Virus record (IMG/VR): IMGVR_UViG_3300042359_000621
Strand: one strand, 5' to 3'
DNA: 64,000 nt
Source of the DNA: a virus
A program made the translations under genes and the position numbers. Under the pieces are notes generated by a model that made no database searches, was not told where the DNA came from, and saw only the letters and a program-made list of their open reading frames with translations. This document shows positions 2,524-19,114 of the stretch, one piece after another. How positions within the stretch are numbered: position 1 is the stretch's first letter; each line of letters opens with the position of its first letter.

Positions 2524-2529
2524 TTTTGG

Positions 2530-3073: not shown

Positions 3074-3135
3074 AATTAATCAACTTAAAACTATTGTTTT
3101 ATTATATAATATAAGTAGTTTTTAAACCGTATATT

Positions 3136-3501: not shown

Positions 3502-3512
3502 GGAATTTAATT

Positions 3513-3992
3513 ATGCACATGGCGACGCAAACTAATATCGCTGCAATCGTGGCATTAAACATCACGACTTTAGAGGATGGGATTATCTTTTGGGCGCGAG
3601 CCGAAAAGACGTGGCTCGGACTAGATAAAACATCCACCGCAACTGCTAATAGTAAATCGTGCTACACAGCAACGGGTGGGACTGGTCGCTGGTTTGTTTC
3701 TAGTGATACTGAAGTTTCTGCTAACACTTTGCCGACGGGTGCGGCTGCCACCGGAACCCGTTGGCGGTATCAGGAGAATAACGCCGTCAATAGTTATGAT
3801 TCAGTTATTAGTTACATCTACAACGGCACAACATGGGTAGAAGTAGACACAAGAATGAGACTCCACACCGGAACCCCCGACAGCTTGAGTAAAACTCCTA
3901 ACTCGAATCGGGAGTCTTGGAAGGATACGTCAACGGGAATAGTTTATACCGCTTTCAATGGCGGTTGGGTGGCAGGAGGTGGCTCTAGTTGA
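3513..3992 (+). CDS. hypothetical T/G/S-rich protein (fibre-tip-like composition)
   Basis: Internal ATG at 3513 with AAGGA upstream preferred over the 3438 start, which overlaps the previous gene. Confidence 0.45.
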   Translation: MHMATQTNIAAIVALNITTLEDGIIFWARAEKTWLGLDKTSTATANSKSCYTATGGTGRWFVSSDTEVSANTLPTGAAATGTRWRYQENNAVNSYDSVISYIYNGTTWVEVDTRMRLHTGTPDSLSKTPNSNRESWKDTSTGIVYTAFNGGWVAGGGSS

Positions 3993-4750
3993 TGCTTCAA
4001 TTCACCTGTGGAAGTTCTTTGGCTTTGGATTTGACCCCGTTTGACGGGGTTGTGATCGGCTATCACTGGCAACCTTTTAATCAAGATGGCACGAAGAACT
4101 CTCTGAATTTCCCTAATAAAATCATCCGAGCGCAGTTTTTATATGGCAACAAACATCACAAACCCTGCCCATTTTCCGGTTGTGATTCAATTATTGAATG
4201 GGTGCATAGAAGGGTTGAGAGATTTCCACAGATCACTGAGTGGGTGTTAGTAAATGAGTGGAGCGATGACCTTGGGGTTCCGTATCCCAACTATTCCCTC
4301 GATAGTTTAAAGCGTTATTGTGAAGCTGCCTATACTGCTAATCCTAGCGCGCGAATAATTTTAGGAGATTTCAGACCACATCTTCTGAATAAATGGCGTG
4401 CGATCGCTAATATCTGCCACGAACTAGCTAAGGATTTTCCGGTAGAAGTTGGGATTCAAACTCACATCAAAAGCTATAACGCTCCCGTTATTTTGGCTCG
4501 TCTCCCTGAAATAATTGGGATGTTTGGCGATATTCCGGTACATTTTATTGAGGCGAGTTTGTGGTATAAGTCGGATCTTGATAAACTCGCCTGTGATTTC
4601 TTATGGAGGGAGTTGGAAGCGATCGCAAATAATCACCAAATCAAATCATTTTGTAATTGGTGGCTGTGTTCTGAGGATGCGGAGGTTGGGCGGCGGATGC
4701 CTACTTTTGAAAACTTGCAGTTATATTCAAGCACTTGGTTGATCAATTAA
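3989..4750 (+). CDS. GH10-like (clan GH-A TIM-barrel) glycoside hydrolase
   Basis: Ordered motifs EWVLVNEW (acid/base NE), ANPSARIILGDF, VEVGIQTHI and VHFIEASLW (nucleophile E) mirror GH10 strands 4-7. Confidence 0.5.
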   Translation: MMLQFTCGSSLALDLTPFDGVVIGYHWQPFNQDGTKNSLNFPNKIIRAQFLYGNKHHKPCPFSGCDSIIEWVHRRVERFPQITEWVLVNEWSDDLGVPYPNYSLDSLKRYCEAAYTANPSARIILGDFRPHLLNKWRAIANICHELAKDFPVEVGIQTHIKSYNAPVILARLPEIIGMFGDIPVHFIEASLWYKSDLDKLACDFLWRELEAIANNHQIKSFCNWWLCSEDAEVGRRMPTFENLQLYSSTWLIN

Positions 4751-6178
4751 ACACATACCATGGGTAGCGTAATATTCTGGTAATTCAGGCTCAATACTAT
4801 AGTCCGACAATTCAATAACCCCATTATTACAAGCTATTATTTTATCTACGCTTGGATATTCTCCTTCTGTCTTATTACCTAGTATTAATACACTGTTTTT
4901 TTGTCCCATTTTAACAATTGAATGTCTCTGTACAATATAATTGTCCATAAAAACACTGTCTAATATATTCATTGATTCAATATCTACCAAGTAAATTCTA
5001 GCGATATTATAATAATCTCCGGTCACTCCATCTATAAATGGTGCATCTCCACCGTTTGCAAGAATAAGTAACTGAGTATCATCTTCTATTAAAAAGGTTT
5101 GAATATTTTTTGACGTGTTACCAGTAGACGAAGGAAATGTGTCAACAAAGTCCCCTGAAATTATATTGGCATTTTCATCAATTACTTGAATAAATAGTGT
5201 GGAAGTAGTACCACCATCTTGTGGCATGGTTTCTGTTAGCCGAGAAAAGTTATATATTAAAATAATTTGACCAGGTTTTTTCTGTATATTAAAATCCATC
5301 AAGCCAACGGCGAAAGCATCGCCAGGAAATTCAGGAAACCCTATTTGAAAACTTCTTAATAATATGGAGTCACTATAAAAAGAATCTTCTGTTTCAATGG
5401 TTGAAATATTGTATATATTTGCTAACACATTTACGATCATATACTTTTTAGTGATATTATCTTCAGGTATCCATTCCCATACAAGATAAATTTCTGTTCT
5501 GATAGCAAGGATATTACCATCATCCAACAATACCTCAAGATGTTTATTGTAAATACCACCATCAACATTTTCGGGAACAAAGCTGCGTGTTGAGTTAAAA
5601 TCTATATCACGGCTTGTAGTAAATTGATAATTGGAATCAAAATATATCAATTTACCTCTTAATGTTTGATATGATTCACCATTTTTTGTATATCTGTTAA
5701 AACCTGAGTTTGGCAACATCAAAAACAATATTGAATTTTGGGAAACAAGATGTGATGTACTCGTTCTATAGGCATAAGAAGTTTGACCATTATCTTCCAA
5801 TCGGACGGGCATAGTAAAACTATCTCCCACTTTTTCAATATTTAATTTTTTTATTTTTAGAAAAATTCCACGCCAAGTAAATTGTTTCACTACACCATTT
5901 TCATCAACTAAGGGTGAATCGTAACATAAAAAGAAATATTCTTTAGACAATTTTATAAAATTTATAGGGTAAAAAAGTTCAGTATAGCCAAACGTATCGT
6001 GCAACCTAGCATCAGGTAAAGGTATTTTTGATTCTATCTTTATTTTTTTGTCACTTGATTGATTTATTATCCTTGTTTCTAAAAAAGTATCTTGCTGCAT
6101 ATAGTTATCAAAAAACAATATGATCCTGTGATACCTTAAAGCTGATGTCTTGAATTTAAAAGCACCATTAATTTTCAT
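4727..6178 (-). CDS. N/I-rich repeat (beta-propeller-like) protein
   Basis: Visibly AT-rich; recurring strand motifs (ILFLML.., IILIYNF.., LLILANGG.., VLILGNK..). Confidence 0.55.
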   Translation of the reverse strand: MKINGAFKFKTSALRYHRIILFFDNYMQQDTFLETRIINQSSDKKIKIESKIPLPDARLHDTFGYTELFYPINFIKLSKEYFFLCYDSPLVDENGVVKQFTWRGIFLKIKKLNIEKVGDSFTMPVRLEDNGQTSYAYRTSTSHLVSQNSILFLMLPNSGFNRYTKNGESYQTLRGKLIYFDSNYQFTTSRDIDFNSTRSFVPENVDGGIYNKHLEVLLDDGNILAIRTEIYLVWEWIPEDNITKKYMIVNVLANIYNISTIETEDSFYSDSILLRSFQIGFPEFPGDAFAVGLMDFNIQKKPGQIILIYNFSRLTETMPQDGGTTSTLFIQVIDENANIISGDFVDTFPSSTGNTSKNIQTFLIEDDTQLLILANGGDAPFIDGVTGDYYNIARIYLVDIESMNILDSVFMDNYIVQRHSIVKMGQKNSVLILGNKTEGEYPSVDKIIACNNGVIELSDYSIEPELPEYYATHGMCLIDQPSA

Positions 6179-7020
6179 ACTACTATTATCTCACTACTGT
6201 CAAAATAGATATATGTTTCTATTGTATCATAAGCTGGAGACAAAAAGATTGGGGCTGTATATCCATGAGCAAAAGCCACTAATGAATCATTGTCTTTGTC
6301 AACAGAAAACAAAAATAATATATTAGCTTTATTGTCATCTCCCCCTACATACTGAACCCCCGTAGATAACTGCATAGACACCCAAGGAGTAAAAGTGGAG
6401 ACTGTGTTAACAACCTGGATATTTGTATAGTCAACCGTAGTAACGGATTTAGTTATAAGTCCAGATAAAAGGTCGCTAGACTTGGTTAATATAATCCCGT
6501 TATCATCTACCACAAACGAAGCTAAAGATTGAGAGGTGACACCAAACCCCGTAAACCAATCAACATCCGAACTAAACCATGTCATGCACTCCCTAGAGAA
6601 GCAGTCCAAAGGGGGAGCCGTGGTAACATTCCGATCTGTTTTATCGTAATTAGAAACGGTTATAATCTCGTTTTGCTCATCTCCAATTCTGAACAAAAAC
6701 AATGACTTTGCTTTATTAATCTTGTTTTTATCTATCTTAACCGAATCATTATAGCCAACATAAACGGGGGATGATTCCGGTCGGGTGTAGGCAAAGGGGT
6801 TCTTAATTGATATTGTCCCTATAGGTGCTTCTAAAAATTCGGCTTCAGTGTTGAGGCATAACCATTCTGAGTTAGTTGTTGAATGAAACATGGGGACAAT
6901 CGTTGATATTCCCAACCCATAACTAGCACTTGAATCCCATTGTTTCTTGGCAACTAACTCCAAAAATTCAATCGTTGGCAGTAGAGAAACCGAGCTAACA
7001 TAATCAGTTGTTGTTGACAT
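6175..7020 (-). CDS. repeat protein, compositionally like 4727..6178
   Basis: 4-nt overlap with downstream gene; motifs SLFLFRIGD / ILFLFSVDKD. Confidence 0.55.
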   Translation of the reverse strand: MSTTTDYVSSVSLLPTIEFLELVAKKQWDSSASYGLGISTIVPMFHSTTNSEWLCLNTEAEFLEAPIGTISIKNPFAYTRPESSPVYVGYNDSVKIDKNKINKAKSLFLFRIGDEQNEIITVSNYDKTDRNVTTAPPLDCFSRECMTWFSSDVDWFTGFGVTSQSLASFVVDDNGIILTKSSDLLSGLITKSVTTVDYTNIQVVNTVSTFTPWVSMQLSTGVQYVGGDDNKANILFLFSVDKDNDSLVAFAHGYTAPIFLSPAYDTIETYIYFDSSEIIVV

Positions 7021-7035
7021 TGCGATCGCCCTCCC

Positions 7036-7311
7036 CTAATTTCTTTTCCACGCTTTCCTGCAATCTTCAGAAGTGAACTTATATAGCGTTCCGTTGTCAC
7101 GAGATGCCTCCCCTCCTTTCTGACCTATTTCAGTTATATGGTCTTTGTTCTGAGATGTTTTTGTTCCGCCTTCACTGCAATCCTCAGAAGTGAACTTATA
7201 TAGCGTCCCGTTGTCACGAGATGCCTTCCCGCCTTTGCTAGAAATCTCTCGACGTTTTTCTGGACTCATAGCAGCAAATCCATATTTCTTTTTCTTATTT
7301 TCTGGTTCCAT
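7036..7311 (-). CDS. KGG-repeat general-stress-type protein (YciG/GsiB-like)
   Basis: SPEKRREISSKGGKAS and EIGQKGGEAS; internal duplication SRDNGTLYKFTSEDC x2. Confidence 0.7.
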   Translation of the reverse strand: MEPENKKKKYGFAAMSPEKRREISSKGGKASRDNGTLYKFTSEDCSEGGTKTSQNKDHITEIGQKGGEASRDNGTLYKFTSEDCRKAWKRN

Positions 7312-7366
7312 AATTAATAAATTTAAGTTAATATTATTTTAACACAAATATTTTATTATAAAAAAA

Positions 7367-7398
7367 AGTATCTGAGTTTGTAGAGCATCTCAGATACT
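7367..7398 (-). terminator. strong hairpin plus T8 on minus strand
   Basis: AGTATCTGAG(7367-7376)/CTCAGATACT(7389-7398), followed on minus strand by TTTTTTTT then TATAAT. Confidence 0.55.
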
Positions 7399-7432
7399 TT
7401 TAAACAACCACACGCACTAGGAGTAAACAACA

Positions 7433-7984
7433 ATGATTATACAACAACTTTGTCTGTTTGAAACACAACCATCACTAATTGATTCAAACGAAAATTATAC
7501 CCCATCTGATTTGATTGATTTAGTCCATAAGTTTTATGGATTTCCTGAATTAGACCCTTTTAGCTGTGAACAAGCTAATCAAATTATTAAAGCTCAAAAG
7601 ATATTTACAATTCAAGATGATGGATTTAAACAGAACTGGAGACGGGCTAAAACACTCTGGTTGAACCCTCCCTACAGCGCGGGATTTATTGAGAAGGTTG
7701 TCGATAAATTGATTGCAACATTGAACGAGACTGAAGCGGAAGCATTCTTGTTAACCAATACCGACAACAGTACGGTTTGGTACAAAAAGGCTTTGAATCG
7801 GTGCGATCGCTTCTGCCTACCGTCAACTCGGTTAACTTTTTATTCCCCAAAACGGGCGCAGGATGGGAAGAAACAAAACCAAAACCGATTCTCCCAAACT
7901 CTATTTTATTTTGGATTGCAACCTCAAAGATTTGAGGAAATTTTTGAGGGTTGGGGAACTGTTTGCCAGACTTCCAAATGGTAA
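7433..7984 (+). CDS. phage-type DNA N6-adenine methyltransferase (Dam family)
   Basis: ..TLWLNPPYS.. catalytic motif and ..LLTNTDNSTVWY.. layout typical of small phage Dam MTases. Confidence 0.85.
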   Translation: MIIQQLCLFETQPSLIDSNENYTPSDLIDLVHKFYGFPELDPFSCEQANQIIKAQKIFTIQDDGFKQNWRRAKTLWLNPPYSAGFIEKVVDKLIATLNETEAEAFLLTNTDNSTVWYKKALNRCDRFCLPSTRLTFYSPKRAQDGKKQNQNRFSQTLFYFGLQPQRFEEIFEGWGTVCQTSKW

Positions 7985-8018
7985 AAAATAACCCCTGTAA
8001 ATTAATTTACAGGGGTTT
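7983..8018. terminator. bidirectional terminator (perfect 24-bp palindrome)
   Basis: CCCCTGTAAATT/AATTTACAGGGG (7992-8015) flanked by an A-run and a T-run, between convergent genes. Confidence 0.65.
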
Positions 8019-8042
8019 AAAGTTTTAGCTATTAATCACTGG

Positions 8043-8255
8043 TTATATATCGCCACGACTGACCTCGCGCCGAAGATCCAGGTCTTTATTTAAAACAAAT
8101 ACTCCATCTTGGAGTTCAATCAAATAGCCTGGTTTCAGTGCTTCAAAGATAGATCCTTGACACCGATCTGCTTTTTTATAATCCCCTGTAGACGCTAACT
8201 TGCCTTCCACGAAATTCAGAAAACCATCTTTGTTAAAGATTTTAATATCTCTCAT
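8043..8255 (-). CDS. hypothetical protein
   Basis: ORF in leftward array. Confidence 0.45.
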   Translation of the reverse strand: MRDIKIFNKDGFLNFVEGKLASTGDYKKADRCQGSIFEALKPGYLIELQDGVFVLNKDLDLRREVSRGDI

Positions 8256-8313
8256 TTGCTTTGTCCTTTATCAATCATTAATTTAGGGTGCTTTTTATTT
8301 GTTGAAACTTAAC

Positions 8314-8511
8314 CTATAAAGTAATCGTTTTTCCTGTTAAAAGATTTTCGAGAGCAACTCGATTTTCCATTAGGTGAATGGACTCTCCATCAAGACACTG
8401 AGATCCTATCTCGCCCTTTCTAATTTTCAAACAGTGGCTTGTTTTATTTGTCATTACCACCACAGGAATAGGGGGATAAGGTGGGGCTACTATGTATGCC
8501 GATAATTTCAT
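8314..8511 (-). CDS. hypothetical protein
   Basis: ORF in leftward array. Confidence 0.4.
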   Translation of the reverse strand: MKLSAYIVAPPYPPIPVVVMTNKTSHCLKIRKGEIGSQCLDGESIHLMENRVALENLLTGKTITL

Positions 8512-8564
8512 AATTATTGATTTAGTCCTCTGCGCTAACTCCTATTATAGTACAAATCAAACCC

Positions 8565-9032
8565 TCAATATCTCCGCCTTAAATATTCTGCCAATAATAA
8601 CGCCTCTGCCCTCCCGTGATGTTTTTCGAGTTTAAGATTGTTAGTTTCACCTGGAAACATCTGCAACGCCATCACCCTTGACGCTTTCTTATCTTTTCCT
8701 ATTAGGCTGTAGTGCTTTTTCCATGCCTGGGGAGTAACAAACTCCATCGGGATTCCTAGCGTTGCAATAATCCCAAGCCAAATCCCAAAACCCATCCCAA
8801 AGTTAAAAGTAGAAGATACCCCTTGCTTGGGCATTGCATGAACATTCTCAATAATTAGGTGAGTATTGATGGTGATCATTTCCTTCAGTCCAGATGCCAT
8901 TAATGTCGGGTTGGGGCGTATCTTTCCACTAATCTTAATCACTGGACAGTCGAGAAATTTAACCTCACCATTAGAAATCCTACACACTGCCCCCGTCGCT
9001 CCGGGGTCAATTCCGATAAATGTTTTAGTCAT
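8565..9032 (-). CDS. RuvC-like Holliday junction resolvase
   Basis: N-terminal FIGIDPGATGAV, later ..ENVHAMPKQGVSSTFNFG.. and C-terminal ..HGRAEALLLAEY.. Confidence 0.75.
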   Translation of the reverse strand: MTKTFIGIDPGATGAVCRISNGEVKFLDCPVIKISGKIRPNPTLMASGLKEMITINTHLIIENVHAMPKQGVSSTFNFGMGFGIWLGIIATLGIPMEFVTPQAWKKHYSLIGKDKKASRVMALQMFPGETNNLKLEKHHGRAEALLLAEYLRRRY

Positions 9033-9345
9033 TATCCGTTGTTGTTTGTAAATAGTTGATAACAGATGGGCTATAGTCAGATATTAAAATTCTTTCAATT
9101 GCCCAAGAGAAGTTGTATTTATCAATTTTTTCACCAAGTCTTCTGCTTAGAATTTTAAATATTATTCTGATTTTATCGCCAATATAAGCAGATCCATAAT
9201 TTAGATTTTTGGCAATCTCAGGATAAGTATTGTCGTTTAATATTCCCTCGAGAATCTTTCTAGTCAAGCTATCAAGATGTTTTCCGGTCTCGGAAAATAC
9301 CAAACTATCAACCAACCAGATATATTCTAACTGTTCCCTAGTCAC
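9025..9345 (-). CDS. HTH protein (LuxR/sigma70-region-4-like)
   Basis: ..LTRKILEGILNDNTYPEIAKNLNYGSAYIGDKIRIIFKIL.. resembles the HTH at N-termini of cyanobacterial signalling proteins. Confidence 0.5.
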   Translation of the reverse strand: MTREQLEYIWLVDSLVFSETGKHLDSLTRKILEGILNDNTYPEIAKNLNYGSAYIGDKIRIIFKILSRRLGEKIDKYNFSWAIERILISDYSPSVINYLQTTTDND

Positions 9346-9628
9346 CTATAAAATCTCCCTCCGCATGGTAGATCCCATTATGAATTTTAAAACCTTCAAT
9401 ATTCTCGGTTTCAATATCCGAAAAACTTACCCGTTCACTAACCATCCAGATTAGTAATTTTTCTAAAGTGTCAAAAGCTGGAAGGTGTGGCAGTTCAAGC
9501 CTTAATCTATCGGGTGTTCCAAAAGCACCTTTAAAGTGAGTGCTGAATTTAAAGATAGAATAATGGCGATCGCTTACCCCTCTTGATATTTTTTCCACTT
9601 CATCGAGTAGGCATCCTAAGTTTTCCAT
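9338..9628 (-). CDS. hypothetical protein
   Basis: ATG at 9628 sits 1 nt after upstream TAG; preferred over the 9670 start. Confidence 0.45.
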   Translation of the reverse strand: MENLGCLLDEVEKISRGVSDRHYSIFKFSTHFKGAFGTPDRLRLELPHLPAFDTLEKLLIWMVSERVSFSDIETENIEGFKIHNGIYHAEGDFIGD

Positions 9629-9644
9629 CCTAAGTTTTCCATCC
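9613..9644 (-). repeat. 14-bp tandem duplication ATCCTAAGTTTTCC x2 (+ATCC)
   Basis: Perfect copies 9613-9626 and 9627-9640 spanning the stop/start junction. Confidence 0.9.
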
Positions 9645-9905
9645 TTTCTTAGCACTGTTGGCATCCGCAAAAGCTATATGATCTCGCGTTACCTGCCACT
9701 TGTAACGAGGTCTTAGTCCCTCTCCAATCCTAACACAATCCGAGTCTGTATCAGTCAAAGGAATCGCGCCGTTCTGATATTTAAACAGGGCTTTTGTTAC
9801 CCAGTTAATATCAGTTAATTGTTGATTTCCCCCGCGCTTTTTTGCTGTCTCAACAACTAATTCCGCGATCTCTGGATAATCTAATTTTAATTTTGCTTTT
9901 GCCAT
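9630..9905 (-). CDS. hypothetical protein
   Basis: ORF in leftward array. Confidence 0.5.
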   Translation of the reverse strand: MAKAKLKLDYPEIAELVVETAKKRGGNQQLTDINWVTKALFKYQNGAIPLTDTDSDCVRIGEGLRPRYKWQVTRDHIAFADANSAKKGWKT

Positions 9906-10068: not shown

Positions 10069-10437
10069 TTATTTTAGATTGGAAAAAGAAATAGCTAATG
10101 TATTTTTTATCCCACCATATAAATCATAAAATTCGACAATTATTGATTCATTTGGTTTCATCACTCGATAACTTCTATCAAAATATCCTGAACAATAGTC
10201 TGTACCGTAATCTTTTTTACAAATAACACGAAAAGGGATATCTGAAGTGATGTTTAATTGTTGAGGTATATCTAAAGGATTTTTTATTATGTATTGTGTT
10301 TTTTTGTTTTTTGATATAAAAACTAGATAATTTCCTGAACGATTAAATATCGTTCTATTTTCATTAGCTAAACATAAATTAGCAAAAGATATGCTCAATA
10401 ATGTAACAGTCAATAGTGATAAAAACAGTTTTTTCAT
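10069..10437 (-). CDS. secreted small protein
   Basis: N-terminal signal peptide MKKLFLSLLTVTLLSISFANLCLA; AT-rich. Confidence 0.55.
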   Translation of the reverse strand: MKKLFLSLLTVTLLSISFANLCLANENRTIFNRSGNYLVFISKNKKTQYIIKNPLDIPQQLNITSDIPFRVICKKDYGTDYCSGYFDRSYRVMKPNESIIVEFYDLYGGIKNTLAISFSNLK

Positions 10438-10481: not shown

Positions 10482-12374
10482 CTACATATCAGGTAAAAAG
10501 TTTACACTTCTGAAACCATTAATTTCCTTGATTAGTTTTTGACCTAAACCAAAATTTTGCAATTCATCAAATATTAACTCAGTATTTTCAGCATTCAAAC
10601 CGAATTGAGTTCTGAGTGATGACTTGCGGTAACAGTCACGGGCGGGTATAGGTTCACCCTTAAATATTTCTTTGATAAAATTAAACACCGCTTGAGCTGA
10701 TGGTGAAAGTGTTTTATCCGGCAATACTTTATTGGCTGTACCATTCCACGAAGGTTTATATTTGGCTTGTAATTCAGATTCAAGGCTTAAACGCTTTTGC
10801 TCGTCCCAACCTTTTGTAATATAAAAAGCAACCTTCACAGATAGATTACCAACAGATTCAAGATGTTTCTTGACGTGATGTTCCCAATCACCTCGATTAT
10901 TCCAACGCCTCCAAAGGTCTTTAGATTGACCTATATAGAGGGGATTTTGATAGCCGTCAACAAATACACAGTATACCCCTGCTTCGTGTTGTGGTAGCCA
11001 CTGTAAACCACTGGGATAATCAATAGATTGCCATGTGTTGCAATCTAATGGGTTTATTGATTGCAGTACACTAGGAACATCTTTTTCAATCTTAGGGAGT
11101 GAAACCGTCTTAACGTCTATGGGTTTGTTTAAAAAATTAGGATTCAATAAACCTTCGGGGGCATTGCCTTTTTTCCTATACTCAACATGATGTTTGTGGG
11201 TTGGATGTTCGGCGATTTGATGTTGATTTGATCCACAAACAACAACAGGATAGGGAGCATTTTGGATATATTGAAATTCATGGGTGTCGTGCTTCCATAG
11301 ATTTTGAATTTCATTCCTAGCACTAGCGCCACAGAGGATTAAAAGGAAATTATTTCTAAACTTACCATCAATCCCTATGGCTTCAGTATTATGAGATTGC
11401 ATAAAACCGATTAAACAAATATCAAATTTCCTGGCGTTAGAAAGTTTCCGAATCGCATAAGTAAAGGTCTTAACTCTTTTTTCTTTGCTTTGTAATGGTT
11501 TGATAATATCTAATTGTGCTAACTCGGACATCGTGTCGTTAATCTCATCTAAACAAATTATTATAGAATGCCCGTCTTTTTCTTTCCGGTTTTCAACTTC
11601 TTCAATCAACCAGCACAAAATCTGATAAATTGTTTCAACATCTGATTCAATTCTGGGAAATCCCATCTGTTCCCAAATGGGATTCTTAGAAGCATGAATA
11701 TCCAAAACAATCACTTCGGCGGGTCTATGTTGAGTCAATTTACCAATCACGAAACCAGCGCCTAGAGATGTTTTTGCGCTCCCAGAATTTCCCCCGATCA
11801 ATATTCCCGAAGATTCATCTGCTAATTTATCCCAATTATAAAAGTTTAAGGTATTATCAGAGGGAATTTCACAGGGGACGAACGACAATCCATCAGAAGG
11901 AATATTATAATTATCTTGATTATATTCTGTAGAAATCTCTCGGTCTAAAACCATTAATTGATTCCGGCGAAGATTCCTTTCATTATCTTCTGGTTGGTTT
12001 TGTGGCGATGGTGGTGATGGTGGCAATATTTGATTATGGTTTTTGATTGGCGCGATCGCCTGTTGGCTTTCGTCTAAATATTTAATATCTCTAATTTTTT
12101 CTAATTCATATTCCATACCTAAACGTCGCAAAAATATAGCCTCGGTTTGTTCCTCTAATTTGGCTTGCAACTTAGATGATTTTTCTGCCTGACACCCCAT
12201 CACCCAACCCGCAACAGATAACACCGCACCAGCAGATGTTCCAACTATCCCTAATTGTGGGTTTTTGTTGATTGCCAAAGGTGAGAGAATTGCCAGACTA
12301 CAGCCAGCAATAGTTAGACCTATTGACCATGTTGACAGGTGAGGATTTTTTAAATGTTCAGGGGTGTTATTCAT
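10482..12374 (-). CDS. membrane-anchored FtsK/SpoIIIE-like P-loop ATPase fused to GIY-YIG nuclease
   Basis: Two N-terminal TM helices. Walker A GGNSGSAKTS; VIVLDIH; Walker B IIICLDEIND; FDICLIGFMQSHN. Then GVYCVF..LYIGQS..R..E..N (GIY-YIG). Confidence 0.7.
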   Translation of the reverse strand: MNNTPEHLKNPHLSTWSIGLTIAGCSLAILSPLAINKNPQLGIVGTSAGAVLSVAGWVMGCQAEKSSKLQAKLEEQTEAIFLRRLGMEYELEKIRDIKYLDESQQAIAPIKNHNQILPPSPPSPQNQPEDNERNLRRNQLMVLDREISTEYNQDNYNIPSDGLSFVPCEIPSDNTLNFYNWDKLADESSGILIGGNSGSAKTSLGAGFVIGKLTQHRPAEVIVLDIHASKNPIWEQMGFPRIESDVETIYQILCWLIEEVENRKEKDGHSIIICLDEINDTMSELAQLDIIKPLQSKEKRVKTFTYAIRKLSNARKFDICLIGFMQSHNTEAIGIDGKFRNNFLLILCGASARNEIQNLWKHDTHEFQYIQNAPYPVVVCGSNQHQIAEHPTHKHHVEYRKKGNAPEGLLNPNFLNKPIDVKTVSLPKIEKDVPSVLQSINPLDCNTWQSIDYPSGLQWLPQHEAGVYCVFVDGYQNPLYIGQSKDLWRRWNNRGDWEHHVKKHLESVGNLSVKVAFYITKGWDEQKRLSLESELQAKYKPSWNGTANKVLPDKTLSPSAQAVFNFIKEIFKGEPIPARDCYRKSSLRTQFGLNAENTELIFDELQNFGLGQKLIKEINGFRSVNFLPDM

Positions 12375-12717
12375 TGTTTCCTTGAGGTAAAGAGAAAAAT
12401 ATCCAACATGAAACCGTTATTGTTAATAATAAAATCCACAATAATAATCTTAAGACTATCCAAGATTGTCCTATTCCTAAAGCGTAAAATATGCCAATCA
12501 ATAAAGATATTGCACCGAATATCAACTCATCAGAATCGGTTGATTGTTGATTCTCTGATAACAAATAAACTGCCACGCCACCAACAATTGAACCCAGATA
12601 AAGACAAATTGATAATACTCTAACCTCTGGATAAGTTAGTGCGAAATGTGACAGTAAAAAGGAACAAGATAAACCTGTTCCAAAGATTGAAAACTTTTTG
12701 ACTTTCCATAGTTTCAT
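12367..12717 (-). CDS. multi-pass membrane protein
   Basis: 3-4 hydrophobic helices; 8-nt overlap with ATPase gene. Confidence 0.55.
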   Translation of the reverse strand: MKLWKVKKFSIFGTGLSCSFLLSHFALTYPEVRVLSICLYLGSIVGGVAVYLLSENQQSTDSDELIFGAISLLIGIFYALGIGQSWIVLRLLLWILLLTITVSCWIFFSLPQGNNE

Positions 12718-12752: not shown

Positions 12753-13268
12753 TTACAGTTTCATTGAGTTTTCAATTTTGTCCAACTGCTTCATCATCGC
12801 AACAGCCCCCGCATTTTCGTTAGCATAGTTACCAACAGCTTGCATTAAATATACAGCTTGAGTGTCAAGTTGTTTCTGAGTATTCAACTTTTCAGTAAAG
12901 CGTTTTAGAGAACCTTCAGCCACACCTTTAACATATTGTTGGTCAGCTTCGTACCATTCAGTCCGTGCTTTATCAACCTTCAATTGAGCTTCAACAATTA
13001 TCTTTTTATTGGATGCTGCTTTAATCGCATTCTCGGCGATAATCTTAGCTCCCTTAGCCTCATTCTCGGAGGGGTTGACTCGGTCGGGAATGTTGAATTG
13101 TTGGTCAAAATCATCGGTTCCTGCATAGCTGCGTTCACGGGTATAGGGGGTGATATCACCTTTTCCGGTAGGGGTCATCACTTTAGAGAAATTAGCACCC
13201 GTGCCAGCTTCTTTGATAATGTTTCCGGTTGAAAATCGACTGCGTAACCCGTCTAGTTTAGTTGCCAT
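12753..13268 (-). CDS. hypothetical coiled-coil protein
   Basis: Start at MATKLDG (13268) chosen to minimise overlap. Confidence 0.45.
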   Translation of the reverse strand: MATKLDGLRSRFSTGNIIKEAGTGANFSKVMTPTGKGDITPYTRERSYAGTDDFDQQFNIPDRVNPSENEAKGAKIIAENAIKAASNKKIIVEAQLKVDKARTEWYEADQQYVKGVAEGSLKRFTEKLNTQKQLDTQAVYLMQAVGNYANENAGAVAMMKQLDKIENSMKL

Positions 13269-13524
13269 TGATTTTACTCCACTCATTAAGTAATTGTTTT
13301 TTACAACCTTCACCACCTTTAGCTTTTAGGCATTTTTCATACCCTGAAAGATTGGCTACAGCTACAAACTTCTGAAATTCCTCTGTTGGTTTATTTGTTA
13401 ATCTGACAACTTCAGAAGTTATCAAGCCAACTAACAATAAACTCAACAGAGCCATTGACCAATTGAAAACGTGAAACCCTGTTATCTGGGGGGAGGTCTG
13501 GGTTTCAGATTGTTGTAAATACAT
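13258..13524 (-). CDS. single-pass membrane protein
   Basis: TM helix ..WSMALLSLLLVGLI..; abuts rhomboid stop. Confidence 0.5.
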   Translation of the reverse strand: MYLQQSETQTSPQITGFHVFNWSMALLSLLLVGLITSEVVRLTNKPTEEFQKFVAVANLSGYEKCLKAKGGEGCKKQLLNEWSKINGN

Positions 13525-14073
13525 TTAGTTTGTCTCCAATTTCTGACTGTTTGCATCTAAATACCCCGCTATCGCACCACCAATAAACCCTGCCAGATGA
13601 CCTTCCCAACTAATCCCTTGCGCAACCGATGGCAGCATTCCGCCGATTAAACCTTGAAATATTACCCAAGTGATTGTTGCACATACCAAATTAGGGAAAT
13701 CCAACCGGAATATAGCTGACAAAAGGCAAAATCCAAAAAATCCATATATCACCCCGCTTGCTCCTATATGATTTGAACCAGGTTGACCAAAGAACCAAAC
13801 ACCAAAGCCTTCAATTATTGAAATCAGCCAAAAGTTGTAATTAAATTTTCCAGGGGCTTTGAAAATTGTCAAAGTTGCCAATGGCAAATATCCGACTGTG
13901 TTCCCTATCAAGTGTTGGGGATCTCCGTGTAGGAATGGCGAGGTTATAATTCCCAACATTCCTATACCTTCCACTCCTGGTCTGATTCCAAAATAATCAA
14001 ATCCGGGGAAAAACATCTCTAAAGCCCACATTATTCCCAGATAGGTAGCTGCACACTTAAAATCTTTCAACAT
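13525..14073 (-). CDS. rhomboid-family intramembrane serine protease
   Basis: HGDPQHLIGN (HxxxxHxxxN), GASGVIYG (GxSG) and EGHLAGFIGG (catalytic His) in the canonical order. Confidence 0.85.
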   Translation of the reverse strand: MLKDFKCAATYLGIMWALEMFFPGFDYFGIRPGVEGIGMLGIITSPFLHGDPQHLIGNTVGYLPLATLTIFKAPGKFNYNFWLISIIEGFGVWFFGQPGSNHIGASGVIYGFFGFCLLSAIFRLDFPNLVCATITWVIFQGLIGGMLPSVAQGISWEGHLAGFIGGAIAGYLDANSQKLETN

Positions 14074-14077: not shown

Positions 14078-14230
14078 TTACCAGTCTAAAATTATCGAAC
14101 CCGGTGTTTGATTTTGTGGTGATTGTGTTTGGCGTTGGTTTGGTAAACTTAGTTTTCCAGAATAGAGGAAAAAAGCCAAGGCAACTAACGCAATACCACC
14201 CCAAATTAAATTCTGTTTGTTTTTTTCCAT
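14078..14230 (-). CDS. 50-aa single-TM protein (below ORF-track cutoff)
   Basis: Hand translation MEKNKQNLIWGGIALVALAFFLYSG..; its TAA lies 4 nt before the rhomboid ATG. Confidence 0.4.
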   Translation of the reverse strand: MEKNKQNLIWGGIALVALAFFLYSGKLSLPNQRQTQSPQNQTPGSIILDW

Positions 14231-14592
14231 ATTTTCCTTTGTTGTTTATCTGTTCGTTTTGAATTGTTCATAATATCGGTTACAAACAATGTTGTTATGG
14301 ATTGCAACTAACGGGGGAATTGTTAGGTAAATAAAAATTCCAAAAATCATCCATTGGATAATAAATCTATGGTTTATCGTTATCACAAATCCCCCTCTAT
14401 ATAAGCTCGACAAAAGGCTCCGGTATTGTCTGGGGTGCGATTATCGGTAATATCTGCACCCCCTCTCTTTAGGCAAATAAAATAAGTTAAGAACCAAACT
14501 ACTATCCAAAACATCATTTCTTTGCGTGTGTAAAAATTCCACATTGGTTTCTGTGATGTTTCAATTCTTGTTTAAATCAATAATAAAAACCA

Positions 14593-14844
14593 TCAGTTTC
14601 GATTATTGATAATCACAGGTGGGGATGGTTGACTAGGACGTTCAACATACCTTGCACCCCCCATAACAATCGGAGATATAAAAATCAAAAATATAAATCC
14701 TAGTGGTATCCACAAGATATCTGAAGACCAACCCCCAGATTTAATGTTTTGATTGGGTTGTTGTTGGCAATTATTAAAAGGTTGTTGCTGGTAGTTTTGA
14801 CCAGGAGCTTCATAATAGTTGACTTCGATTTTTGGCTTACTCAT
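14593..14844 (-). CDS. Q/N-rich protein with one TM helix
   Basis: ..ILWIPLGFIFLIFISPIVMGG.. Confidence 0.5.
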   Translation of the reverse strand: MSKPKIEVNYYEAPGQNYQQQPFNNCQQQPNQNIKSGGWSSDILWIPLGFIFLIFISPIVMGGARYVERPSQPSPPVIINNRN

Positions 14845-14871
14845 GATTTTCTCCTTTTAATTATTAAAAAA

Positions 14872-15147
14872 TTAATCGTTTCTGATGTTGTAAACAGTCG
14901 GTGCATTTCCTTGAGGAACAGAATAAGCACCTGAAGGCATTGCAGTAGGATTTATTTGTGGTCTTGCTAAAAAGTTTTGCAAAACTAAGCCTCCAACAAT
15001 TCCTAAAACTAACCACTGCCAACCTTTTAATTTGTCAAAGATATTGTCTTTCATTGTTTCATCCTCTCCTAATAGTTCGTTGATTAATGCTAATTTTTCA
15101 TAATCTTTATCAGAACAAACTTTCTGAGATAAGATTCTTTTTTTCAT
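14872..15147 (-). CDS. C-terminally TM-anchored small protein
   Basis: Start at MKKRILSQ (15147) avoids overlap with upstream gene; TM WQWLVLGIVGGLVLQNF. Confidence 0.45.
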   Translation of the reverse strand: MKKRILSQKVCSDKDYEKLALINELLGEDETMKDNIFDKLKGWQWLVLGIVGGLVLQNFLARPQINPTAMPSGAYSVPQGNAPTVYNIRND

Positions 15148-15157
15148 CTGTTTAAGC

Positions 15158-15478
15158 TCAGAAGAACTTAAAGATGATTGTGTTTTGACTCCCGATGTTG
15201 AATCTGTAACCTGGTAATCCTGAATCACCGTATCCGCGTTCTGCAATCTCTGGATTCTGTTGATACTGATGTGGTTCATATTCTTGAGTTTCTTGAGGTA
15301 ATGTGTACTCGTATTCTTGGGTTACAGTTCTGCGGTTTCGGCATGGACTTTGTGGCATGGTTTCTGTTTGCAAATAAGCATCTTGGTAGGTATACCCTTG
15401 GGGTAATTCAGATGCCATAGCTTGACCTGTCACGGATGTGACCAAGCACAAGACAAGGCTTGTGCCAAGTTGTGCCAT
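15158..15478 (-). CDS. secreted Q/Y/E-rich small protein
   Basis: Start at MAQLGTSLVLCLVTSVTGQAMA gives a signal-peptide-like N-terminus. Confidence 0.4.
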   Translation of the reverse strand: MAQLGTSLVLCLVTSVTGQAMASELPQGYTYQDAYLQTETMPQSPCRNRRTVTQEYEYTLPQETQEYEPHQYQQNPEIAERGYGDSGLPGYRFNIGSQNTIIFKFF

Positions 15479-15546
15479 GTTTTTTACCGGAATCACCGTA
15501 CCACATGACAGGTTGTCGTGAACCAACGGGAGAAGAATTGTATCCA

Positions 15547-15741
15547 TCATTTTGAGTCCTTTTCAATGAGATTAATAAACTGGTTTCTTGCAGAGAGTAG
15601 ACTGCAAATCCCGTTAGCATTTGCTTGAATCATCCAGAGGGCTAACCCGCCACCAATACCTGTTCCAATTATCAAGAGTATGATTGTATTTATCATTGAT
15701 TTCTTGATGTTGTTTGCTGTTTTTACGATAGATGACACCAT
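15547..15741 (-). CDS. single-TM small protein
   Basis: ..NTIILLIIGTGIGGGLALWMI.. Confidence 0.5.
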   Translation of the reverse strand: MVSSIVKTANNIKKSMINTIILLIIGTGIGGGLALWMIQANANGICSLLSARNQFINLIEKDSK

Positions 15742-15820
15742 GATTAAACCCTGATTATTGAACTAACAAATCCCTCCGTGCATAAGAAAAACTACTTCGG
15801 GATATTGTTTTTTAATTGGT

Positions 15821-16366
15821 TTATTTGCCCTCCGGCAATGCAAAGTAACCGAGTACGTTTTCACTTCCGGTAAGTTGAAATCGATCTGCTCTTTCGACCT
15901 CTCGAATCTCGGCATCAATAATCATTCCCACCTGATTGAAACAGGTTGTTACTTTTGCAAATTCAAAGCCTTGGGCAAAATGTTCTAAGACTTTATCCTG
16001 TAGTTTTTCCGCAGCCAGTTCAACAACCTTGGGGGCTATTTGTTCGGCTAGATTGTCAGCCATTTTGTCGATTGTTTCAGCCATTGATCCAGCCGCGTGT
16101 TCGGCTTTTCCGCCCGTTTTCTTTTGCTGTGATTGCAGGTCTTTAACGTACTTTTCAACAGCTTGGGAGACAGATAACGAGTGAGTTTGTTGTATCGCGA
16201 TGATTGAGGAAAGAATCGCTACCATCCCATTTTGAGGAACATTTGTTGCGTCAAAATGGAAATTTTCTACCAGAGAGGAAATGATTAATCTAGCTCTTTC
16301 TGGTTTGACTTTAACCGCAGAGGCGATCGCGTCAAGGTCGTAGTTTTGTTGAGTTTGTGCTGTCAT
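15821..16366 (-). CDS. hypothetical protein
   Basis: 4-nt overlap with upstream HTH gene. Confidence 0.5.
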   Translation of the reverse strand: MTAQTQQNYDLDAIASAVKVKPERARLIISSLVENFHFDATNVPQNGMVAILSSIIAIQQTHSLSVSQAVEKYVKDLQSQQKKTGGKAEHAAGSMAETIDKMADNLAEQIAPKVVELAAEKLQDKVLEHFAQGFEFAKVTTCFNQVGMIIDAEIREVERADRFQLTGSENVLGYFALPEGK

Positions 16367-16620
16367 AGTCCTCTTAATTTAATGTCGTTTAAAATCCGTT
16401 CACGGGTTCGAGTTCTTGCCCTGTTTTTGTACTCGATTAACTTGCTTGCAGCATCAGCCGAAATCATGCCGTCATTGGGTTGAAAATCAAATTCCTCTGG
16501 GCTTAAAACGCCTCGGAGGTCTTGACATAGGGTTCGGAGATAATTAACCGAAACTCCTAAACTCTCGGCTACCTGCTCACGGGTAAAATGGGTAATTTCC
16601 TCAATACTTGCGCTCCGCAT
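16363..16620 (-). CDS. small HTH DNA-binding protein
   Basis: ..FTREQVAESLGVSVNYLRTL.. Confidence 0.55.
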   Translation of the reverse strand: MRSASIEEITHFTREQVAESLGVSVNYLRTLCQDLRGVLSPEEFDFQPNDGMISADAASKLIEYKNRARTRTRERILNDIKLRGL

Positions 16621-17025: not shown

Positions 17026-17295
17026 TTAAATTCGTGAATTTCGCCACGCTTCTATGCTTTCCCAACCGATAGGGATCAATGGGATTAAGTTGCTTGGTTT
17101 ATAGCATTTCTCATGAATCCGTCCAGCCTCTATACTGAATGACCTGGTACTCGGCGGGATCTCTTTTCCACACTCTACACAAACAACAGACTCGGGTTTG
17201 TAAGCAGTGGGATTCATTAGGTCTTTAAGCTCCTCTGGAGATGGGGTATATTCGTCGATATCCCATTCATCATCGCTATAGTTATCCATGTTCAT
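17026..17295 (-). CDS. acidic small protein with CxxC..HxxC
   Basis: Start at MNMDNY (17295); the longer 197-aa form overlaps the opposite-strand RHH gene. Confidence 0.45.
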   Translation of the reverse strand: MNMDNYSDDEWDIDEYTPSPEELKDLMNPTAYKPESVVCVECGKEIPPSTRSFSIEAGRIHEKCYKPSNLIPLIPIGWESIEAWRNSRI

Positions 17296-17407
17296 TTGAC
17301 TTGTTTTAAGGTGGGGTTGGGATTGAGGTGAGAGGGGTTGGAGCCTTCTCGCCTCTTTTAGCGTGATTAAAATATTGTACACTGAACAGTAACAATAATG
17401 GAACAAT

Positions 17408-17638
17408 ATGGCAAGCGACAAGAAAAACAGAATTAACTCAACGCTCCCGGAATTCCATCGGAAATGGTTAAAGGTATGGGCTTTCCTGAAGTGCACCACG
17501 CCGACCGCATTGGCTGGCAATATTCTCCAGGCTAGGATCGAAGCTAACCTAGACTTGATTAGTCGGATGTTAGCAGAAAGGTCTGAAGATTTGGGGATAT
17601 CTTCAGACGAGTTAATCAATCGGATTTTGGATGAATAG
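17408..17638 (+). CDS. ribbon-helix-helix (Arc/CopG-like) regulator
   Basis: ..RINSTLPEFHRKWLKVWAFLKCTTPTALAGNIL.. has a strand-helix-helix pattern. Confidence 0.5.
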   Translation: MASDKKNRINSTLPEFHRKWLKVWAFLKCTTPTALAGNILQARIEANLDLISRMLAERSEDLGISSDELINRILDE

Positions 17639-17971
17639 CTAAAACAAACTTAATTGACCCTCATTAGCAACCGCTTTACGTTTTGGATTGTTCCACGATT
17701 CCCCACGACTGTTGACACAGTTTCGCCAGTCGGGATAGGTTCTGAATGGTTGTTTCAGAGCCACAAATTTCGGAACGAGTTTCAATTCCTCAAGCCAGAT
17801 TTTATAAGGGGAATATTCTCTGGCTCCGAATGGATACCGCGCATTGACATATTCCCGTGCGTCTTGTGGGTTAATTTCTTGACCGAGGCAAGCGCATTGT
17901 GCTTCATATTCAAGGAGGGAGTTTGCAATCTTTGATATTGAACAATCGCGCCAAGACATTGATTTTTTCAT
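17639..17971 (-). CDS. hypothetical protein
   Basis: ORF in leftward array. Confidence 0.5.
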   Translation of the reverse strand: MKKSMSWRDCSISKIANSLLEYEAQCACLGQEINPQDAREYVNARYPFGAREYSPYKIWLEELKLVPKFVALKQPFRTYPDWRNCVNSRGESWNNPKRKAVANEGQLSLF

Positions 17972-18264
17972 TACTTAACAAGTGTGGGACTAAAATCAAC
18001 CTCACAATCCAAGTCCCAAAATAGATTGGCAGAGGTTCTATATAGGCAAAAAACACGGTCACTCTCAAGATCAATTAAGTAACATTCTTGCCTTTTGTCT
18101 TCCTGGTTCCAATGTTCGCCCGTTGATTGGCAGTCATTGGGGTCAATTAATTGACTTTCTAATTTGCGACGATCCTCTATTCTTAACATCCGAGAATCAA
18201 ACCCTCGTTTTTCAACAGATGACAGCCAATTGTATAATCGTCGAGACCCAGTAACTTTAATCAT
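17971..18264 (-). CDS. hypothetical protein
   Basis: 1-nt overlap with downstream gene. Confidence 0.5.
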   Translation of the reverse strand: MIKVTGSRRLYNWLSSVEKRGFDSRMLRIEDRRKLESQLIDPNDCQSTGEHWNQEDKRQECYLIDLESDRVFCLYRTSANLFWDLDCEVDFSPTLVK

Positions 18265-18417
18265 TTAATTACCCTCCGAACTAGGATAGTTAAGCCAATA
18301 CCAAAACGTGATTAATTGATAGTTGGCTGGGTTTCTGTGGCGGATAATATTACGCCATAGTCTGAAGTTAGTCTTGTAGTCATGTGACCCGTCGCGCCAT
18401 AAGTTAATTAGATTCAT
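18265..18417 (-). CDS. 50-aa protein (below ORF-track cutoff)
   Basis: Hand translation MNLINLWRDGSHDYKTNFRLWRN..; its TAA directly abuts the next ATG and fills an otherwise empty gap. Confidence 0.4.
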   Translation of the reverse strand: MNLINLWRDGSHDYKTNFRLWRNIIRHRNPANYQLITFWYWLNYPSSEGN

Positions 18418-18425
18418 GCTGTCCT

Positions 18426-18686
18426 TTACTTTCTAGGGTTTAGCGATCGCCTATAAATTGCCATCGCTCTAATGTGGTTTGGATCATTGATATTTTCATG
18501 ACACTGAATCCAATTTCTTATCAGCGTCAAATTGTACAAATATCCCGCCCGATTCCCGCCAGGGCGTTTGTAATAATGAATTTTGTCAATCCATTTTTTA
18601 CGATAATGTTTGACGGAATCGGCACTCCTCAGTCCCAAGAGTTGGGCGGCTTCCGTCTTGGAGCCAAATTCGTAGGCTGCAATCAT
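18426..18686 (-). CDS. HTH protein (excisionase/MerR-like)
   Basis: ..SKTEAAQLLGLRSADSVKHYRKK.. Confidence 0.45.
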   Translation of the reverse strand: MIAAYEFGSKTEAAQLLGLRSADSVKHYRKKWIDKIHYYKRPGGNRAGYLYNLTLIRNWIQCHENINDPNHIRAMAIYRRSLNPRK

Positions 18687-19114
18687 AAACCTTGAATCCT
18701 TAACTGAATAGGAACCTCGTTAATCTCCAACAATCCTTTTTTAGAAAGTTTTGCCAATTCAACCTGAACATCTTGCACGTCGAATTTAATTTCTTTCTCC
18801 TTCCCCAATGGAGTTACGCCAGAACAGTCAAGTATTGTGATCAGATTTTCTGGTGTAACTTCTAAATCTTTATTGCAGCCATAAAGAAGACGAAGCATAT
18901 AGAGAATGTAGACAGATTTGTTTATTCCCCCTGCTATTAAATCCGATTGCAAATTATAAACAGATTGGACTAATTTACCCTGTTCATTCATCACTGTCCC
19001 CATATTTTTCTCTGGGAATTGGACAATATTTTCTTCCGTCGCCTCTGCATTTCCTAGCGAATACTCTCCCACAAACATGGTTTTCCTCCTATTTAGTAAA
19101 TGCAATCTTGGCAT
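18683..19114 (-). CDS. hypothetical protein
   Basis: 4-nt overlap with downstream gene. Confidence 0.5.
   Translation of the reverse strand: MPRLHLLNRRKTMFVGEYSLGNAEATEENIVQFPEKNMGTVMNEQGKLVQSVYNLQSDLIAGGINKSVYILYMLRLLYGCNKDLEVTPENLITILDCSGVTPLGKEKEIKFDVQDVQVELAKLSKKGLLEINEVPIQLRIQGL

Follow-up and report, generated by a model that had tools for sequence, protein, structure and literature searches.

Can a single phage protein join a DNA pump at the membrane to an endonuclease, and, if so, what would such a protein do for the element that carries it? This question is raised by one gene of the virus record IMGVR_UViG_3300042359_000621 (IMG/VR), of which a stretch of 64,000 nt, here called the window, was analysed; this DNA comes from a phage related to PaV-LD, a cyanophage of Planktothrix. 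An earlier note, made from the sequence alone, had described the product of this gene as a 630-aa protein in five parts: two N-terminal transmembrane (TM) helices, a coiled coil, an FtsK-like ATPase core, a GIY-YIG nuclease domain and a small C-terminal tail resembling a winged helix-turn-helix (wHTH) domain. We found an intact open reading frame (ORF) of that length, with an ATG start, on the minus strand at window positions 10482-12374, and all the motifs that had been quoted are present in it: the Walker A motif GGNSGSAKTS at G194-S203, VIVLDIH at 221-227, the Walker B motif IIICLDEIND at I271-D280, FDICLIGFMQSHN at 317-329, GVY at 466-468 and LYIGQS at 479-484. The fusion is genuine and its architecture had been read correctly, as supported by the ORF itself, the scan for TM segments, a structural model by AlphaFold2 (AF2), sequence profiles and Foldseek searches. 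Our main new finding concerns the middle of the protein: judging from comparison of related genes, the motor (aa ~119-430) is an exchangeable cassette between near-identical flanks (90-100%).

Architecture of the protein and exchange of its motor

The full protein was modelled by AF2 as a monomer from an alignment of 44 sequences, with a mean predicted local distance difference test score (pLDDT) of 75, and TM segments were located by a Kyte-Doolittle hydropathy scan. Its parts, given here from the N-terminus on, all lie on the minus strand. The hydropathy scan found the two TM helices that had been claimed, at aa 17-36 and 41-59 (12198-12326); AF2 helices at 11-35 and 39-84 span both segments, and the N-module containing them has 65-96% identity among homologues. 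Basic residues follow the second TM helix, which suggests an N-in/C-in topology with a cytoplasmic motor. The region of aa 60-107 (12054-12197), at the end of the conserved N-module, is probably helical. The coiled coil of the earlier note is favoured here by the long AF2 helices at 39-84 and 88-107, but their pLDDT is only 55-69, so that a coiled coil is putative and a helical stalk is plausible. After a disordered stretch (108-169) the model shows an alpha/beta core at 176-420 with a pLDDT of ~90, corresponding to the FtsK/TcpA-like P-loop motor at aa 170-421 (11112-11867), inside which Walker A lies at 11766-11795 and Walker B at 11544-11564. A second disordered linker (aa 422-434, 11073-11111, pLDDT <50) leads to a beta-beta-alpha-alpha-beta-alpha module at 449-545 (pLDDT ~84), the GIY-YIG domain of aa ~449-546 (10737-11030), and the protein ends at aa ~558-628 (10491-10703) in a helix-rich winged-helix tail closed by a beta-hairpin.

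As the fusion could have been an assembly or sequencing chimera that relatives do not conserve, its distribution matters. A homologue search returned 18 full-length proteins, encoded in assemblies from JGI, ENA, Logan and NCBI, together with ~50 proteins of ~480 aa sharing the core only. A chimera is thus ruled out, as the fusion is preserved in at least 18 full-length homologues that were assembled independently. More divergent proteins combine the same elements. In P0082 and P0083 (658 and 716 aa), a different N-terminus is followed by TM helices, a type-C-like motor (motor types are defined below), GIY-YIG and a wHTH-like tail, and P0091 joins TM helices and a motor to a GIY-YIG domain at its C-terminus. 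In P0099 (413 aa, on an ENA contig), a type-B-like motor and a wHTH tail accompany a GIY-like module whose motifs are degenerate; in this module GIF replaces GIY and no clear catalytic Arg or Glu is seen, so the nuclease of P0099 may be inactivated. In a viral fold library, the best full-length matches were proteins of 641, 525 and 384 aa (E~1e-10), and a 712-aa protein of Nodularia phage vB_NspS-kac65v161 was matched as well. Similar multi-domain proteins may therefore exist in other phages of filamentous cyanobacteria, as far as predicted folds can tell.

Conservation along the protein is mosaic. In the full-length homologues, the N-module (aa 1-105) and the GIY-YIG domain plus tail (aa 434-630) are 58-100% identical to those of the window protein, and the cores fall into three types, A (that of the window), B and C, with a mutual identity of only 18-21%. 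Proteins P0002 and P0004, for instance, are 96% identical in the N-module, 97% in the GIY-YIG domain and 100% in the tail, with 20% in the core; P0006 and P0017 are 99%, 100% and 92% identical in the same three parts, with 19% in the core. P0017 and P0010, both with a type C core (83% identical), have 70% identity in the N-module, 72% in the GIY-YIG domain and 56% in the tail. The core types are nevertheless homologous by hhalign (probabilities of 96% and 96%), and the PaV-LD protein ORF127L is a distant homologue of the motor by the same method (92%, E=7e-7).

The borders of the exchanged segment were mapped at the DNA level. Homology between the window and two related loci, L008 (type B) and L009 (type C), stops at 12020/12027 (aa ~116-118) and resumes at 11081/11086 (aa ~430). 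Both breakpoints fall within the two AF2-disordered linkers, the 3' one in the linker at 422-434, and together with the identities per domain they delimit the cassette at 11082-12019 (minus strand), made of a disordered linker and the ATPase motor. The type-A cassette of the window is ~70% identical in nucleotides, over aa 177-406, to the genes of the ~480-aa proteins, which are encoded on plasmids (see below); therefore, capture from this plasmid family, or exchange with it, was not very recent. Distant homologues have repeatedly taken the place of the motor, a process known as HerA/FtsK capture.

A HIP1 palindrome, GCGATCGC, is found at window 12052-12059, at codon ~107 of the gene. It coincides with the end of DNA homology to loci L003 and L005 (12054) and lies ~30 nt from the L008/L009 breakpoints; this may be coincidence, as the 64 kb contain 30 HIP1 sites.

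Capture of this kind has been described for DndH/DptH, for related Orc/Cdc6-REase-wHTH neighbourhoods and for other related counter-invader systems, in which a constant nuclease plus wHTH architecture gains diverse HerA/FtsK motors from different sources (PMC10853773). The earlier note had called the architecture unusual, and this stands in part: a nuclease and a wHTH domain with captured HerA/FtsK motors were already known from that work, but the described cases have neither GIY-YIG nor a membrane anchor. More specifically, their nuclease is a restriction endonuclease (REase), whereas the window protein carries GIY-YIG, is small, membrane-anchored and phage-encoded, and belongs to a membrane-protein operon. 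Its neighbours are small membrane proteins and a rhomboid protease, without Dnd, Orc or phosphorothioate (PT) modification partners. Finally, the exchange is seen here among near-identical genes, with DNA breakpoints that map to linkers.

Kinship of the motor, the nuclease and the tail

A profile of the motor core was built from 16 diverse homologues and searched against the PDB. The first match was TcpA of plasmid pCW3 from Clostridium perfringens (6o1x, E=1.6e-3), followed by FtsK (2iuu, E=6e-3), with an alignment that starts at Walker A, includes Walker B and reaches as far as the 'aRk...Q...N' region. Consistent with this, a Foldseek search with the AF2 model placed TcpA (E=1.3e-6) and FtsK motor domains (2e-5 to 1e-4) at the top, and RecA, DnaB, KaiC, Rho and EccC all ranked below them. 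The core is thus FtsK-like, as the earlier note had it, and is not closer to a non-translocase P-loop family, although the margins are modest. The signature of the additional strand, catalytic E (ASCE) class of P-loop ATPases is present, with Walker A at 194-203 and Walker B IIICLDE at 271-277; motor types A, B and C all retain G198, K201, T202 and D276 without change. They also share R315, which may be the arginine finger.

Single-sequence searches gave sub-threshold matches only. The Pfam family FtsK_SpoIIIE (PF01580) did not reach its threshold with the window protein (14.6 bits against a cutoff of 24, E=0.023) and matches only 7 of the 44 family members, the best with E=9e-4, and a KaiC-type ATPase family of Pfam was also sub-threshold (E=0.076). 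PDB profile searches with type B and type C motors gave no FtsK match, probably because the alignments are shallow. We regard the motor family as a divergent branch.

The window protein is not an orthologue of cellular FtsK/SpoIIIE. Its motor resembles theirs in fold, in both Walker motifs and in the ARxx...Q...N region, and the order of anchor, linker, motor and C-terminal wHTH in the protein mirrors their order of N-terminus, linker, alpha-beta motor and gamma. The protein differs in having two TM helices instead of four or five and in the alpha domain, none being detected where the disordered linker directly precedes the motor; moreover, its tail matches generic winged helices and not FtsK-gamma. 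TcpA, to which the identity is only ~14-18% over the structural alignment, likewise has an N-terminal membrane anchor followed by an FtsK-type motor. Streptomyces TraB has a membrane anchor, an FtsK-type motor and a C-terminal winged helix that reads sequence, and so comes closer still in its plan. Like TcpA and TraB, the nuclease-less relatives of the window protein are plasmid-borne. Unlike them, the window protein has GIY-YIG between motor and tail, and it is encoded by a virion-forming phage. We find it best classed among FtsK-type translocase-nuclease capture proteins, built on a membrane pump like TraB or TcpA.

In the GIY-YIG domain, Y468, Y480, R490, E532 and N544 are invariant in the 13 full-length homologues that were aligned, and the Pfam GIY-YIG match is sub-threshold (E=0.001-0.004) yet occurs in 13/13 of them; for the window protein, PF01541 gives 17.8-19.7 bits, with a gathering score of 22.6. 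The catalytic residues align over the whole domain with the GVY, YIG, R, E and N positions of Thermotoga maritima UvrC (1ycz), in an alignment that is non-significant when taken alone (E=0.66). A profile hidden Markov model (HMM) of this domain only, searched exhaustively against 1.84 billion representative proteins, found just 19 matches. It reaches P0083 (E=6e-14) and P0087 (E=6e-7), which pass the PF01541 gathering score with 29.1 and 27.0 bits, and most of the other matches score just under it. Because of this transitive link to proteins that pass Pfam, we accept membership in GIY-YIG, as the earlier note had proposed, in a rare and divergent branch. In an AF2 model of the C-terminal region only, the GIY-YIG part had a pLDDT of ~50, and the Foldseek output was dominated by wHTH domains. 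I-TevI has a GIY-YIG domain, a linker and a DNA-binding domain in this order. The window protein resembles it in the DNA-binding domain that follows a linker, and resembles both I-TevI and UvrC in the Y...Y...R...E...N constellation and the predicted beta-beta-alpha-alpha-beta-alpha topology; it differs from both in that its GIY-YIG domain is embedded in a membrane translocase.

For the tail, a separate AF2 model reached a pLDDT >90, and Foldseek returned winged-helix domains only, with a target-normalised TM-score of ~0.65, including Z-alpha, the ScpA C-terminal winged-helix domain, MarR and PerR; no FtsK-gamma entry was found in the top 50 matches. This agrees with the wHTH-like tail of the earlier note. 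The same tail has other carriers. It ends the ~480-aa plasmid ATPases (40% identical to that of the window), it is found on a 106-aa ORF in L005, and it is 52% identical over aa 516-627 in P0081, a stand-alone T5orf172/MUG113 nuclease. P0081 is encoded at L007:3300-3986, just after Peptidase_M23 and GH108 endolysin genes on a PaV-LD-like contig. It shares only the linker and the wHTH tail with the window protein, as hhalign between the GIY module and its T5orf172/MUG113 domain gave no match. These comparisons suggest that the wHTH tail is a shuffled DNA-binding module.

The ~480-aa proteins consist of TM helices, a motor of type A, 75-82% identical to that of the window, and the wHTH tail, and carry no GIY-YIG domain; both they and ORF127L have other N-termini than the window protein. 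Their genes lie on 10 Planktothrix plasmid records, three of which belong to P. agardhii NIES-204, and those of more distant members on plasmids of Pseudanabaena and Annamia; MOB-suite predicted all these plasmids to be non-mobilizable. ParA, RHH, ParB, an integrase and a large DUF3854 protein are encoded near them. The plasmid genes are preceded by those of a soluble 177-aa protein and of a 90-aa polytopic membrane protein that overlaps the ATPase start. This layout resembles that of the phage, but the layout alone is common to both, as the upstream partners of phage and plasmid show no detectable homology (hhalign probability of 0.2%). Leads from tblastn and BLASTP had pointed to the plasmid 177-aa protein as a split-off GIY-YIG; we rejected this candidate, which has only a YIGxSxDLxRxW-like stretch, with no Pfam GIY-YIG match and no profile homology.

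The phage genome and the membrane-protein operon

Window 22780-44000 and PaV-LD 294-26257 have 92% DNA identity, and window 17639-19988 also matches PaV-LD in DNA. The encoded proteins follow the same order in window 1-9905 and PaV-LD 74.6-84.7 kb, and again in window 17026-20997 and PaV-LD 91.2-94.3 kb. Between these flanks, which are collinear at 83-98% protein identity, a non-homologous module of ~7 kb (window ~10.0-17.0 kb) stands in place of the PaV-LD block with endolysin, peptidase and ORF124-131 (84.7-91.2 kb). The sole likeness, a weak one, is that of a 122-aa ORF at window 10069-10437 to the ORF126L region (32% identity). The replaced block contains ORF127L, which is annotated as 'FtsK/SpoIIIE protein' and matches the PHROG family 'FtsK/SpoIIIE-like protein'. 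ORF127L has the same genome place as the window protein, two N-terminal TM helices and a homologous motor, and lacks GIY-YIG; BLASTP detected no similarity between the two. No BLAST-detectable homologue of the window protein was found in PaV-LD or in any INPHARED phage, and no other INPHARED phage has a BLAST-detectable relative of ORF127L. A literature search on PaV-LD with FtsK and on Planktothrix plasmid conjugation found no prior study of either protein.

The gene is the last of an operon whose upstream order is the same, on the same strand, in five independent loci (the window, L003, L005, L008 and L009): an HTH protein (85 aa), a helical 181-aa protein, a series of small ORFs, most of which encode single-pass membrane proteins, then a rhomboid, an 88-aa single-pass protein, a soluble protein of 171-187 aa, a polytopic protein of 113-121 aa and the ATPase. 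An extra ORF of 73-81 aa precedes the polytopic protein in L008 and L009 only. That the gene is part of a PaV-LD-like cyanophage and lies at the end of this operon, that plasmids carry versions without a nuclease, and that the motor is exchanged between conserved ends had escaped the earlier note. In the window, all on the minus strand, the polytopic membrane protein has 116 aa (12367-12717); its stop overlaps the start of the ATPase-nuclease by 8 nt, and a partner in equivalent layout is present in every lineage. The conserved soluble partner (12753-13316, ~171-187 aa, no family match) probably starts at M17, and the conserved 88-aa single-pass protein is at 13258-13524. The rhomboid-family intramembrane protease (13525-14073; PF01694, E=4e-17) is conserved in L003, L005, L008 and L009; its motifs HxxxN, GASG and GHLAGF are visible by eye, and six or more small single-pass membrane ORFs surround it, whose products could be its substrates. 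The upstream part (14078-16620) has ~8 small ORFs, four or more of which code for single-pass membrane proteins, and the 181-aa helical and 85-aa HTH proteins. Apart from the rhomboid, the operon partners had no match in Pfam, PHROGs or PADLOC.

Downstream of the gene the loci differ, with type IV CRISPR-Cas genes in L005, and Dam and IS605 elements in L003. At the two loci of P0055 (L005:12862-17873 and L006:3599-8610), the ATPase-nuclease is followed by Csf3, Cas6, PAPS_reduct (CysH-like), a weak Csf1 and then the DnaN sliding clamp, a cluster that looks like a type IV-like CRISPR-Cas on a PaV-LD-like element. IS200/IS605-type elements (Y1_Tnp with OrfB/TnpB-like) adjoin the ATPase-nuclease at L003:12785-14523 and L003:3345-4523 (82-kb contig). 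On the other side, a gene pair of a bpMoxR AAA+ ATPase and a VWA-domain protein was observed upstream of the membrane-protein operon at L009:1-2819 and L011:1192-4286.

Possible roles of the ATPase-nuclease

What might this protein do? We propose that it is a membrane-anchored, ATP-driven translocase and endonuclease of double-stranded DNA acting in conflict between mobile elements or in exclusion, and we give this molecular model and role, taken jointly, a probability of roughly 45%. The FtsK/TcpA-type motor, which is presumably hexameric, would be tethered by the two TM helices and the stalk to the inner membrane on its cytoplasmic side; DNA would be bound by the C-terminal winged helix, reeled in by the motor and cut by the GIY-YIG domain, which is carried on flexible linkers. 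As to its origin, the protein may derive from a pump of TM helices, motor and wHTH, such as that found without nuclease on Planktothrix plasmids and in PaV-LD, with GIY-YIG now lying between motor and tail. Its role may be to exclude or destroy competing DNA at the membrane, for example that of a superinfecting phage or plasmid DNA handled by plasmid-type pumps, probably with the co-operonic small membrane proteins as partners.

We favour conflict or exclusion because fusions of translocase and nuclease with captured motors are a signature of conflict systems, because motor turnover between near-identical flanks looks like diversifying exchange, and because the membrane is where incoming or transferring DNA appears. 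In related loci, moreover, the gene adjoins the variable region with type IV CRISPR-Cas, methylases and insertion sequence (IS) elements. Several observations weigh against this proposal. The motor matches are modest (E~1e-3 by sequence, target-normalised TM-score ~0.4), types B and C are joined to FtsK only transitively, and the nearest solved relative, TcpA, is a conjugation protein. No known defence-system model matches: PADLOC v2 gave no match for the window protein or its four nearest partners, and only weak ones, to mad8, AriA and IetA (E>=5e-4), for P0055 and P0010. The gene is a fixed member of a conserved multi-gene membrane operon, not a stand-alone accessory, and the nuclease-less plasmid relatives suggest an ancestral core function in transfer or segregation, not in defence.

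In another explanation, which like exclusion had been among the suggestions of the earlier note, the pump, with small membrane proteins analogous to Spd of Streptomyces plasmids, would move the element's own DNA between trichome cells or filaments, the wHTH tail selecting the DNA and GIY-YIG making the nick or end for threading. That a conjugative coupling protein, TcpA, ranks best by profile and fold fits with this, as do the plan of TM helices, motor and C-terminal wHTH, which is the plan of TraB, and the position of the gene at the end of an operon of many small membrane proteins. The nuclease-less versions, furthermore, lie on plasmids of Planktothrix, Pseudanabaena and Annamia that have par and rep genes and are without recognised conjugation genes, and the identified hosts, like that of the fold-matching Nodularia phage, are filamentous cyanobacteria. 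Transfer of the TraB type, however, requires no nuclease, and to our knowledge GIY-YIG enzymes form no relaxase-type covalent intermediate. A virion-forming phage with terminase and portal has no evident need of conjugation, the partner proteins of phage and plasmid are not detectably homologous, no relaxase or VirB4-like gene was seen among the operon proteins in Pfam and PHROGs scans, and the repeats found around the gene, in window 9.5-17.7 kb, do not exceed the chance level and form no clt- or KOPS-like array. Own-DNA transfer is for us the main rival, though a doubtful one. We consider it unlikely that the protein is a tool of the lytic programme, serving to degrade host DNA, to process replication intermediates at the membrane or, kept inactive, to be freed as a nuclease by the rhomboid. 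The gene does lie among phage genes of DNA metabolism (RuvC-like resolvase, methylase), the equivalent module of PaV-LD contains endolysin and peptidase, the stand-alone T5orf172 nuclease P0081, which ends in the same wHTH tail, is encoded beside the endolysin of a related element, and the rhomboid is conserved in the operon; yet bulk DNA degradation explains neither the need for a motor nor its swapping, PaV-LD manages with a nuclease-less homologue, and cleavage of the ATPase-nuclease by the rhomboid is hypothetical.

Two further explanations separate the domains from a common task at the membrane or assign the motor to the capsid. The GIY-YIG part could be a selfish homing endonuclease of the I-TevI kind, fused in frame to an unrelated ATPase with no functional coupling; its order of GIY-YIG, linker and DNA-binding domain is the I-TevI layout, and the same tail occurs on the stand-alone T5orf172 nuclease P0081. 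This is nevertheless very improbable, since the module is not patchy but present in all 13 aligned full-length homologues, diverging along with the N-module, and since the fusion recurs in distant lineages; moreover, the tail also ends the nuclease-less plasmid ATPases and so belongs to the pump, with GIY-YIG lying between motor and tail. The least credible explanation, to which we attach almost no weight, is that the protein packages DNA into the capsid, as ATPases of the FtsK-HerA type do in giant viruses and in tailless phages with a membrane. The matches in the viral fold library do include giant-virus packaging ATPases of the A32-like kind, and PaV-LD has been described as tail-less (PMC10343443). 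The window, however, encodes its own canonical large terminase and portal, besides head proteins, which is why we do not regard the FtsK-like protein as the packaging motor. PaV-LD is also annotated with a tape-measure protein, the window protein is membrane-anchored, and TcpA and FtsK outrank packaging ATPases among solved structures.

If the molecular model of translocation and cleavage at the membrane is true, the protein would be a compact pump-and-cut machine on a single polypeptide, joining conjugative FtsK-like pumps and nuclease-translocase defence proteins, which are usually studied apart. To us, the most interesting results are the cleanly bounded exchange of the motor cassette and the kinship that links the pumps of phages and plasmids in filamentous, bloom-forming cyanobacteria. 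The former is a natural experiment on selection, be it for inhibitor escape, partner matching or oligomer compatibility. The latter, a nuclease-less pump on plasmids called non-mobilizable, raises the possibility that these cyanobacteria have an unrecognised route of DNA transfer free of a type IV secretion system (T4SS), or of plasmid maintenance; such a route would matter for how accessory genes, those for toxins included, are spread. In a more speculative vein, and with little confidence, one may imagine a minimal TraB-like pump, common to plasmids of filamentous cyanobacteria and to PaV-LD-like phages, by which DNA passes from one trichome cell to another and to which the phage has added a nuclease, swapping the motor to co-assemble with, hijack or sabotage co-resident channels; an arms race would then be fought over the motor domain of a DNA translocase. 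The gene also offers a first functional handle on a conserved and so far unannotated block of PaV-LD-type cyanophage genomes.

Two small duplications were observed in the part of the window that lies beyond the 3' end of the gene. A perfect 14-nt tandem duplication, with CATCCTAAGTTTTC present twice, is located at window 9612-9639, where two small ORFs overlap. A 91-aa ORF at window 7036-7311 (minus strand), 94% identical to PaV-LD 82257-82526, has an internal duplication in which ASRDNGTLYKFTSEDC occurs twice.

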